This document shows, one piece after another, positions 1 through 1,179 of a DNA stretch of 1,179 nucleotides (position 1 is the first letter of the stretch; every line of letters begins with the position of its first letter). The DNA is from Escherichia coli. GTDB lineage: Bacteria > Pseudomonadota > Gammaproteobacteria > Enterobacterales > Enterobacteriaceae. Below the pieces are notes generated by a model. It did no database searches. It was given only the letters and a program-made list of their open reading frames with translations, and was not told the DNA's origin. The stretch lies in NCBI RefSeq assembly GCF_003334385.1, contig NZ_QOWN01000123.1; one strand, given 5' to 3'. The position numbers and the translations under genes are program-made.

Positions 1-40
1 CTGCGATCAGCAGGATCAGCGCGCCGACTATCTGTAACAT
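1..40 (-). CDS. 5' end (first 13 codons) of a downstream gene encoding a protein with a hydrophobic N-terminus (probable inner-membrane protein or signal/anchor segment); possibly the yeeR-like gene that follows flu in the E. coli CP4-44 prophage. Continues beyond the left edge.
   Basis: Seen in sequence: ATG at 40-38 (minus) followed in frame by MLQIVGALILLIA with no stop to the window edge. GGAG lies 5 nt upstream of the ATG (plus-strand CTCC at 46-49). The gene is on the same strand as, and 120 bp downstream of, the autotransporter stop. It is too short to appear in the ORF track, and the yeeR identity is recollection only. Confidence 0.45.
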   Translation of the reverse strand, partial: MLQIVGALILLIA

Positions 41-109: not shown

Positions 110-140
110 GGTCCGGGTCCCGATCATGATGACCGGGACC
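110..140. other. GC-rich imperfect inverted repeat (potential stem-loop) in the 3' intergenic region of the autotransporter gene; not a canonical intrinsic terminator
   Basis: Seen in sequence: 116-122 GGTCCCG pairs perfectly with 134-140 CGGGACC (7 bp, 11-nt loop). An alternative register, 110-119 against 131-140, gives a 10-bp stem with one mismatch. The loop contains the short palindrome ATCATGAT. No T/U-run follows on either strand. Confidence 0.3.
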
Positions 141-160: not shown

Positions 161-1179
161 TCAGAAGGTCACATTCAGCGTGGCCTGACCGTTATAGCCT
201 TCAGCGCTGCTGCCGCTGACGCTGTGGACATAACCTGCCTGAACGCCCAGGGTGATATTTTCCCGGACACGGGCTTCCAGTCCGGCCTGCAGGTCCAGTG
301 ACGTACCATTCTGTGACGGTGAGAACGTCATGTTACTGCCGGCTGCGGCTGTACCCATGCTCATGTCCCCCCGGGAGCTGAAGGTGCGGATAACAGAAGG
401 CTGTACCCACCAGTTCACCGGCAGTTCACGCACACTGTGTTTGGCACTGCCGCGCAGGGTGTCACGGGATGAGGTGCCTTTACCAAAGTTCATATCGTGG
501 TGGCTGCCCAGACGGAAGCCGGCACGCACATGTTGTGCACTGCCATGCCCGAACTTCACATAACTGGCGTTATCCTGGCCGTCATCCAGGGAGAGTCCCT
601 GCCAGGTGTACTGCAGTTGCGGCTCCAGCATCAGATTGTCAGTGATACTGAAGGGCAGACCGGTTTCCAGCGAACCCAGCCAGCCCCAGCCCCGGACGCG
701 GAAGTCGTTATTGTCCGATGAGGCTTTCATGCTGTGGCGGGTTCCCTGGGCCACAATGTCAGCCCACAGGCCGGAGGCGTTGTGTATCAGATTCAGGTAT
801 CCGCCCAGGCTGCCGGCATCATCCCGGACCGTGCCGGCACGGGAGCCGTCATCATCCTTAACATCAACGGAAGAATGGCCAGCAGCACCATATACCCCCG
901 CGGTCACAGACATACCGGCAACCTCTGTTCTGAGCAGGTCACCCTCCAGACGGACGAAGCCATAGCTGCCGCTGCTTTCCGGCGTGGCTCCACGGGCAAT
1001 ACCGCCGTTGTTATCGTGACCGAGATGACCGCCCTGAATGCTGAGACGGACGCTGTTATTTTCACCGCTTACACCGGTCTGATGGCTGCGGGAGCCTGCC
1101 AGAATCCGGTCATAGTCCATTGCCTGTGTCAGCATGGAGGCATACAGGGGGACTTCTGCACGATAAGCATTTTCACTGC
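161..1179 (-). CDS. flu: Type Va autotransporter, C-terminal translocator (beta-barrel) domain plus preceding linker; antigen 43 (Ag43)-like. Partial: 5' end and passenger domain lie beyond the window's right edge. Stop codon at 161-163.
   Basis: Seen in sequence: a 324-aa minus-strand ORF in the track, and my manual translation of 1136-1178 continues in frame with no stop (...SENAYRAEVPLYASMLTQAMDYDR...), so the Met at 1135-1133 is internal. The C-terminus ends in an aromatic residue (NVTF), the usual outer-membrane beta-signal. Repeated amphipathic segments with alternating hydrophobic/aromatic residues (YGFVRLEGDLL, FRVRGWGWLGSL, LQYTWQGLSL, WWVQPSVIRTF, ITLGVQAGYVHSV) and Gly/Ser/Asp-rich connectors fit a 12-strand barrel. 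Established knowledge/recollection: the sequence closely matches what I remember of the E. coli Ag43 beta-domain; not verified by search. Confidence 0.85.
   Translation of the reverse strand, partial: SENAYRAEVPLYASMLTQAMDYDRILAGSRSHQTGVSGENNSVRLSIQGGHLGHDNNGGIARGATPESSGSYGFVRLEGDLLRTEVAGMSVTAGVYGAAGHSSVDVKDDDGSRAGTVRDDAGSLGGYLNLIHNASGLWADIVAQGTRHSMKASSDNNDFRVRGWGWLGSLETGLPFSITDNLMLEPQLQYTWQGLSLDDGQDNASYVKFGHGSAQHVRAGFRLGSHHDMNFGKGTSSRDTLRGSAKHSVRELPVNWWVQPSVIRTFSSRGDMSMGTAAAGSNMTFSPSQNGTSLDLQAGLEARVRENITLGVQAGYVHSVSGSSAEGYNGQATLNVTF

Follow-up and report, generated by a model that had tools for sequence, protein, structure and literature searches.

The helical linker and 12-stranded barrel predicted from the 3' end of agn43 in Escherichia coli

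Does the peptide that precedes the predicted strands encoded by a 1,179 bp stretch of Escherichia coli DNA (contig NZ_QOWN01000123.1, here called the window) form a helix spanning the pore of a beta-barrel, and is the translocation unit in the window complete? Both had been proposed in a preliminary description made from the sequence. The window is the 3' end of agn43 (flu), the gene for Antigen 43 (Ag43), on the minus strand. The segment is very probably the linker of the Ag43 type Va translocator, with a helix at residues 709-728 that runs through the lumen of a 12-stranded barrel.

The agn43 fragment and its predicted structure

The sole long reading frame in the window is on the minus strand, from 1177 to 164. 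Its 338 codons translate from SENAYRAEV... to ...GQATLNVTF and are followed by a stop codon at 161-163, while at the high end of the window agn43 runs on past the edge. Copies that are 100% identical and annotated as 'autotransporter adhesin Ag43' (agn43) were found by megablast against complete E. coli genomes, with similar sequence present in 4145 of the 5426. In strain GE3 the agn43 product at the 100% identical locus is 1039 residues long and the window corresponds to 702-1039. Scored against NCBIfam NF033177 (auto_Ag43, the Ag43/Cah equivalog), this full-length protein reaches 1902 bits, above the curated cut-off of 1200 bits that is applied to the whole protein, and the fragment in the window scores 806 bits by itself, with an end-to-end match to profile positions 611-948 of 948. 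Fragment residues 63-314 match the Pfam Autotransporter beta-domain PF03797 (E 2.8e-21).

The peptide flagged as the linker, SENAYRAEVPLYASMLTQAMDYDRILAGS, is 29 residues long (window 1091-1177, minus strand; Ag43 702-730). Its given range of 1088-1179 also takes in the codon for R731 and two bases of the codon for R701. Translation shows the peptide to be real and on the minus strand, which had not been stated. It was said to be rich in helix-favouring residues, and this is the case: A, L, E, M, Q and R account for 52% of its residues, where the average over all 310 stretches of 29 residues in the fragment is 33%, and it ranks second among them. It was also said to lack an alternating strand pattern, which is true from approximately 712 to 730 and not of 702-711. 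The 170-degree hydrophobic moment is 1.4-1.8 for 702-711, a strong beta-type periodicity, versus 0.2-0.9 for 711-730.

Relatives of Ag43 were gathered by exhaustive HMMER search (1257 matches at E <= 0.001, of which 84 reach E <= 1e-30), and 49 diverse relatives were aligned with Ag43 620-1039 prior to template-free AlphaFold2 prediction. Model 1 covers Ag43 620-1039 and model 2 covers only the 338 residues encoded in the window. The mean predicted local distance difference test score (pLDDT) is 91.2 for model 1 and 91.0 for model 2, with predicted template modelling scores (pTM) of 0.88 and 0.87. Both models have a helix at 709-728 (fragment residues 8-27 in model 2), at a pLDDT of approximately 92-97, which in model 1 is 96-97 in the 10-residue blocks that span 710-729. 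Before this helix model 1 has a strand at 698-706, the SWYLRSENAY region at the end of the autochaperone cap, and a two-residue break. The edge of the window cuts this last cap strand in the middle, and the seven residues at the start of model 2 are coil, as would be expected with their strand partners missing from the window. A high-confidence helix is therefore present within the flagged segment, as had been predicted, with the exception of its first seven residues, SENAYRA, which are not helical.

Twelve long strands follow the helix at 743-1038 in model 1, and the same 12 strands are present in model 2. The helix was placed directly N-terminal of the first strands, which is approximate, since a 14-residue connector (G729-N742) separates the end of the helix at 728 from the start of strand 1 at 743. 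The mean pLDDT of the connector is 60 in the 730-739 block of model 1 and 64 in the 732-741 block of model 2, and the topology of the barrel would place it on the periplasmic side. Confidence is lowest in both models (pLDDT approximately 48-61) at 927-954 (window 419-502, minus strand), the 28 residues that separate strands 8 and 9. By strand parity this would be an unusually long periplasmic turn, most of the other periplasmic turns in the model being 2-8 residues.

Upstream of the window, the 1039 aa protein of strain GE3 carries beta-helix repeats and, at its N-terminus, an extended signal region. At the other end, Ag43 finishes ...ATLNVTF before the stop codon, the terminal aromatic (beta-signal) closing the last strand, and the consensus of the 49-sequence alignment likewise ends ...LxVxF. 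Ag43 thus has these features of a classical (type Va) autotransporter translocator: PF03797, 12 strands, a helix immediately N-terminal of the barrel, a C-terminal aromatic, and, outside the window, a signal and passenger.

The helix and the barrel lumen

The autochaperone belongs to the extracellular beta-helix, and with a periplasmic C-terminus a barrel of 12 strands has to start strand 1 in the periplasm. With the cap outside and the start of strand 1 in the periplasm, the 20-residue helix (approximately 30 Å) must cross the membrane, for which the lumen is the sole route. The lumenal position of 709-728 is suggested both by this topology and by the coverage of the superpositions on solved barrels. 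NalP and EspP had been offered as structural parallels, and the Ag43 model does align with solved autotransporter barrels that include NalP 1UYO and EspP 8QP5 (Table 1). Only 12 residues of NalP and 15 of AIDA-I are left unaligned. These are fewer than the residues in their helices, which must therefore overlap the Ag43 helix at least partly. A Foldseek search with the longer model returned the same families, including pre-cleavage EspP 3SLJ (TM score 0.81).

Table 1. Solved autotransporter structures aligned with the Ag43 model.
Structure	Score	Deviation	Residues aligned
AIDA-I transport unit 4MEE	31.0	2.5 Å	288 of 303
EstA 3KVN	30.6	2.3 Å	293
Hbp 3AEH	28.8	2.4 Å	264 of 277
NalP 1UYO	28.2	2.1 Å	265 of 277
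AaaA 9OQA	25.9	2.6 Å	288
BrkA 3QQ2	25.2	2.1 Å	236 of 245
EspP 8QP5	24.5	3.1 Å	280 of 299

A helix at 709-728 that does not span the pore, lying instead against the periplasmic or the extracellular face while a different stretch traverses the membrane, is very unlikely. No alternative crossing stretch is present, as 698-706 belongs to the extracellular cap as one of its strands, and the 14 residues of 729-742 are a poorly conserved connector. A pLDDT of 96-97 is not normal for a free helix, and one without a packing partner would not be expected to attain it. The small number of unaligned residues in NalP and AIDA-I also argues against a helix on the barrel face, as does the established knowledge that the solved classical autotransporters among the matches all have a helix in the lumen (PMC9289746).

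The relationship of Ag43 to these structures is distant in sequence. With the fragment as a single sequence, phmmer gave no match among PDB sequences at E <= 0.01. 4MEE was reached only with a profile, at E 1.9e-54 for that of the homologue alignment. AIDA-I (4MEE), a self-associating autotransporter of E. coli, is the closest solved relative of Ag43 by sequence and fold, yet its structure-based identity is only 17-19%, its passenger repeats and glycosylation differ, and it has a different locus and family model (NF033176). NalP of Neisseria meningitidis (1UYN/1UYO) is 14% identical to Ag43. Its passenger is a subtilisin-like protease, and its barrel has shorter extracellular loops and is without the AIDA-type WYL...YR junction.

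The SPATEs EspP and Hbp (beta-domains 2QOM, 3SLJ, and 3AEH) differ from Ag43 in undergoing self-cleavage of the helix at an Asn within the barrel. The Ag43 helix, EVPLYASMLTQAMDYDRILA, contains no Asn at any position in 709-728, and Ag43 is cut far upstream. The documented cleavage, which separates alpha43 from beta43, is at an Asp-Pro site (bioRxiv 10.1101/2025.04.08.647479). The AIDPTNVT motif containing this site, approximately 150 residues upstream, lies beyond the window and is present in the 100% identical locus of strain GE3. Because the cut is this far upstream, the helix remains attached to the autochaperone.

A linker of the SPATE kind, releasing the upstream domain by autocleavage within the barrel rather than tethering it permanently, is therefore very unlikely in Ag43. 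Pre-cleavage EspP 3SLJ is among the best fold matches, and the minor 35 and 31 kDa forms of Ag43-beta have been speculated to reflect loss of the autochaperone domain, or of this domain and the linker (PMC11451606). The cleavage of EspP and Hbp is at an Asn, for which the Ag43 helix has no counterpart, with PDB entries 3SLJ, 3SLO, and 3SLT being mutants of N1023. It is also AIDA-I, rather than the SPATEs, that is closest to Ag43.

By analogy with what is known generally of NalP, EspP, and BAM-EspP, BAM/TAM-assisted assembly of the barrel would enclose the linker segment (PMC9289746), and the passenger would be threaded outward, C-terminus first. Once export is complete, the segment would settle into a helical form, in which it plugs the pore, stabilises it, and serves as a tether for the surface domain. 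The helix would then link the autochaperone and beta-helix on the cell surface to the periplasmic start of strand 1. Unlike in EspP and Hbp it would not be a cleavage site, and would stay covalently joined to the autochaperone in beta43. AIDA-I is similar to Ag43 in keeping the helix joined to the autochaperone.

Conservation of the linker among relatives

The columns of the helix are free of gaps in the 49 relatives, barring one N-terminally truncated fragment. Such constancy of length would be expected of an element that spans the membrane. In the same sequences the spacer that separates WYL from Tyr-Arg ranges from 0 to 62 residues, typically being approximately 20 and often rich in Pro, Gly, and Ser. 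W698, L700, Y706, R707, Y713, and Y723 are conserved in 86-100% of the aligned sequences, with Y706 kept in 92%, R707 in 94%, and Y713 and Y723 within 86-94%. The connector that follows the helix is the least conserved region, at 20% mean identity to Ag43.

That the helix call is an accident of composition, the segment being truly strand or disordered, is the least probable of the alternatives: 702-711 has beta-type periodicity and 702-706 is strand in model 1, but both models agree on the helix at 709-728 with very high confidence, published PSIPRED predictions agree (PMC5802855), and the length of the segment is invariant among relatives.

Some points weigh against a lumenal helix in Ag43. 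AlphaFold2 was trained on NalP, EspP, and AIDA-I, hence the model is not independent of these structures. There is no experimental structure of the Ag43 barrel, none having been found by phmmer against the PDB, and a 2025 preprint agrees (bioRxiv 10.1101/2025.04.08.647479). In addition, in 29 of the 49 relatives the column of Ag43 L717 (window 1130-1132, minus strand), midway along the helix, is occupied by a proline, so that the geometry of the helix may differ among subfamilies.

The proline of Ag43 is instead in the first helical turn, at P711 (window 1148-1150, minus strand), where most relatives have Ser. In the Ag43 clade the spacer between the WYL of the WYLR cap strand and Tyr-Arg is 5 residues (window 1163-1179, minus strand; Ag43 701-706), which means that the autochaperone must sit directly atop the barrel. 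Because the spacer is nearly absent and the Ag43 clade has no mid-helix proline, it is conceivable, although doubtful, that the Ag43 helix is an unusually rigid tie-rod clamping the autochaperone to loops L4 and L5 of the barrel. If so, it could be one contributor to the unusual resistance of beta43 to heat and to alpha43 being retained at the cell surface.

Features of the window and the published Ag43 translocator

The coordinates of the Ag43 features are collected in Table 2. The window sequence is found at a median of 2 and a maximum of 7 places per E. coli genome, with identities at the best place mostly of 90-99%. Multiple copies at this level of identity are consistent with several agn43 alleles per strain. 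The plus-strand open reading frames (for example 606-965, 119 aa) were dismissed as shadows antisense to a conserved gene; none of at least 30 aa overlaps the flagged region, 1088-1179.

Table 2. Coordinates in the window of the Ag43 features.
Feature	Window position	Strand	Basis
3' part of agn43/flu, residues 702-1039 and stop codon	161..1179	-	Translation, 100% identity, NF033177, PF03797
Junction S702-R707, tail of last autochaperone-cap strand and near-invariant Tyr706-Arg707, not helical	1160..1177	-	DSSP strand 698-706 in model 1, coil in model 2
Alpha-helical linker E709-A728 (EVPLYASMLTQAMDYDRILA), probable pore-spanning segment	1097..1156	-	Both AlphaFold2 models
Connector G729-N742, helix to strand 1, low confidence, 3-residue helical turn at 731-733	1055..1096	-	Both models
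12-stranded beta-barrel, Ag43 743-1039, C-terminal ...NVTF	164..1054	-	Both models

Between the agn43 stop codon (161-163) and the start of the next gene (40) there is a near-perfect palindrome, GGTCCCGATCAT-G-ATGACCGGGACC, at window 116-140, with 12-nt arms that are 92% complementary. It is the core of a stable hairpin in the minus-strand RNA, the 123-nt intergenic RNA having a folding energy of -38.3 kcal/mol (z = -2.35). No intrinsic terminator was called in a promoter and terminator scan of the window, there being no T-run after the hairpin, and the one promoter-like site (plus strand, 34-63) is no more than shuffled sequences yield. A search of Rfam with the whole window, palindrome included, on both strands gave no match at E <= 1. 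The start of the downstream gene is at window 1-40 on the minus strand (1524-4040 in L001, the 100% identical locus of strain GE3), with ATG at 40-38 and GGAG at 49-46, and reads MLQIVGALILLIA... In strain GE3 this gene encodes an 838 aa 'hypothetical protein', which has no NCBIfam match at E <= 1e-5, and is followed by genes of the IrmA family, DUF905, and DUF932.

The translocation unit is usually defined as linker plus barrel (PMC4347601; also PMC9289746), and the Ag43 translocator has been described as 330 aa, an alpha-helical linker and a barrel (PMC10058404). Under this definition the window does hold a complete, self-contained helix-plus-barrel translocator (702-1039), as had been suggested, although the autochaperone and the remainder of native beta43 (552-1039) are missing from it. 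A helix starting from residue 710 has been predicted in Ag43, 710-1039 has been expressed as the beta-core, and 700-1039 is the standard translocation-unit construct for display, with variable efficiency (PMC5802855). The start of the window, at 702, is two residues after that of the 700-1039 construct. An AlphaFold3 topology model of beta43 also includes the alpha-helical segment (bioRxiv 10.1101/2025.04.08.647479). Ag43beta(700), Ag43beta(710), and this beta43 model are the same protein with the same boundaries, and nothing substantive is different. Likewise, the loops modelled here between long strands at approximately 899-906 and 977-991 agree with the published L4 (900-913) and L5 (969-992). 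The allele in the window and other Ag43 alleles differ by a few percent, and published numbering may be off by one residue.

The helix and barrel of Ag43 are therefore already known; the earlier inference is correct and the feature is a textbook one. Its weight as a discovery is small, as Ag43 is among the best-studied autotransporters of E. coli, and for over a decade its helix-plus-barrel translocator has been the subject of prediction and modelling and has served in surface display. What is gained is the correct annotation of the window as the 3' end of agn43 on the minus strand, with exact boundaries for the helix, connector, and barrel, and the assignment of the first seven flagged residues to the junction of the autochaperone and the barrel rather than to the helix.
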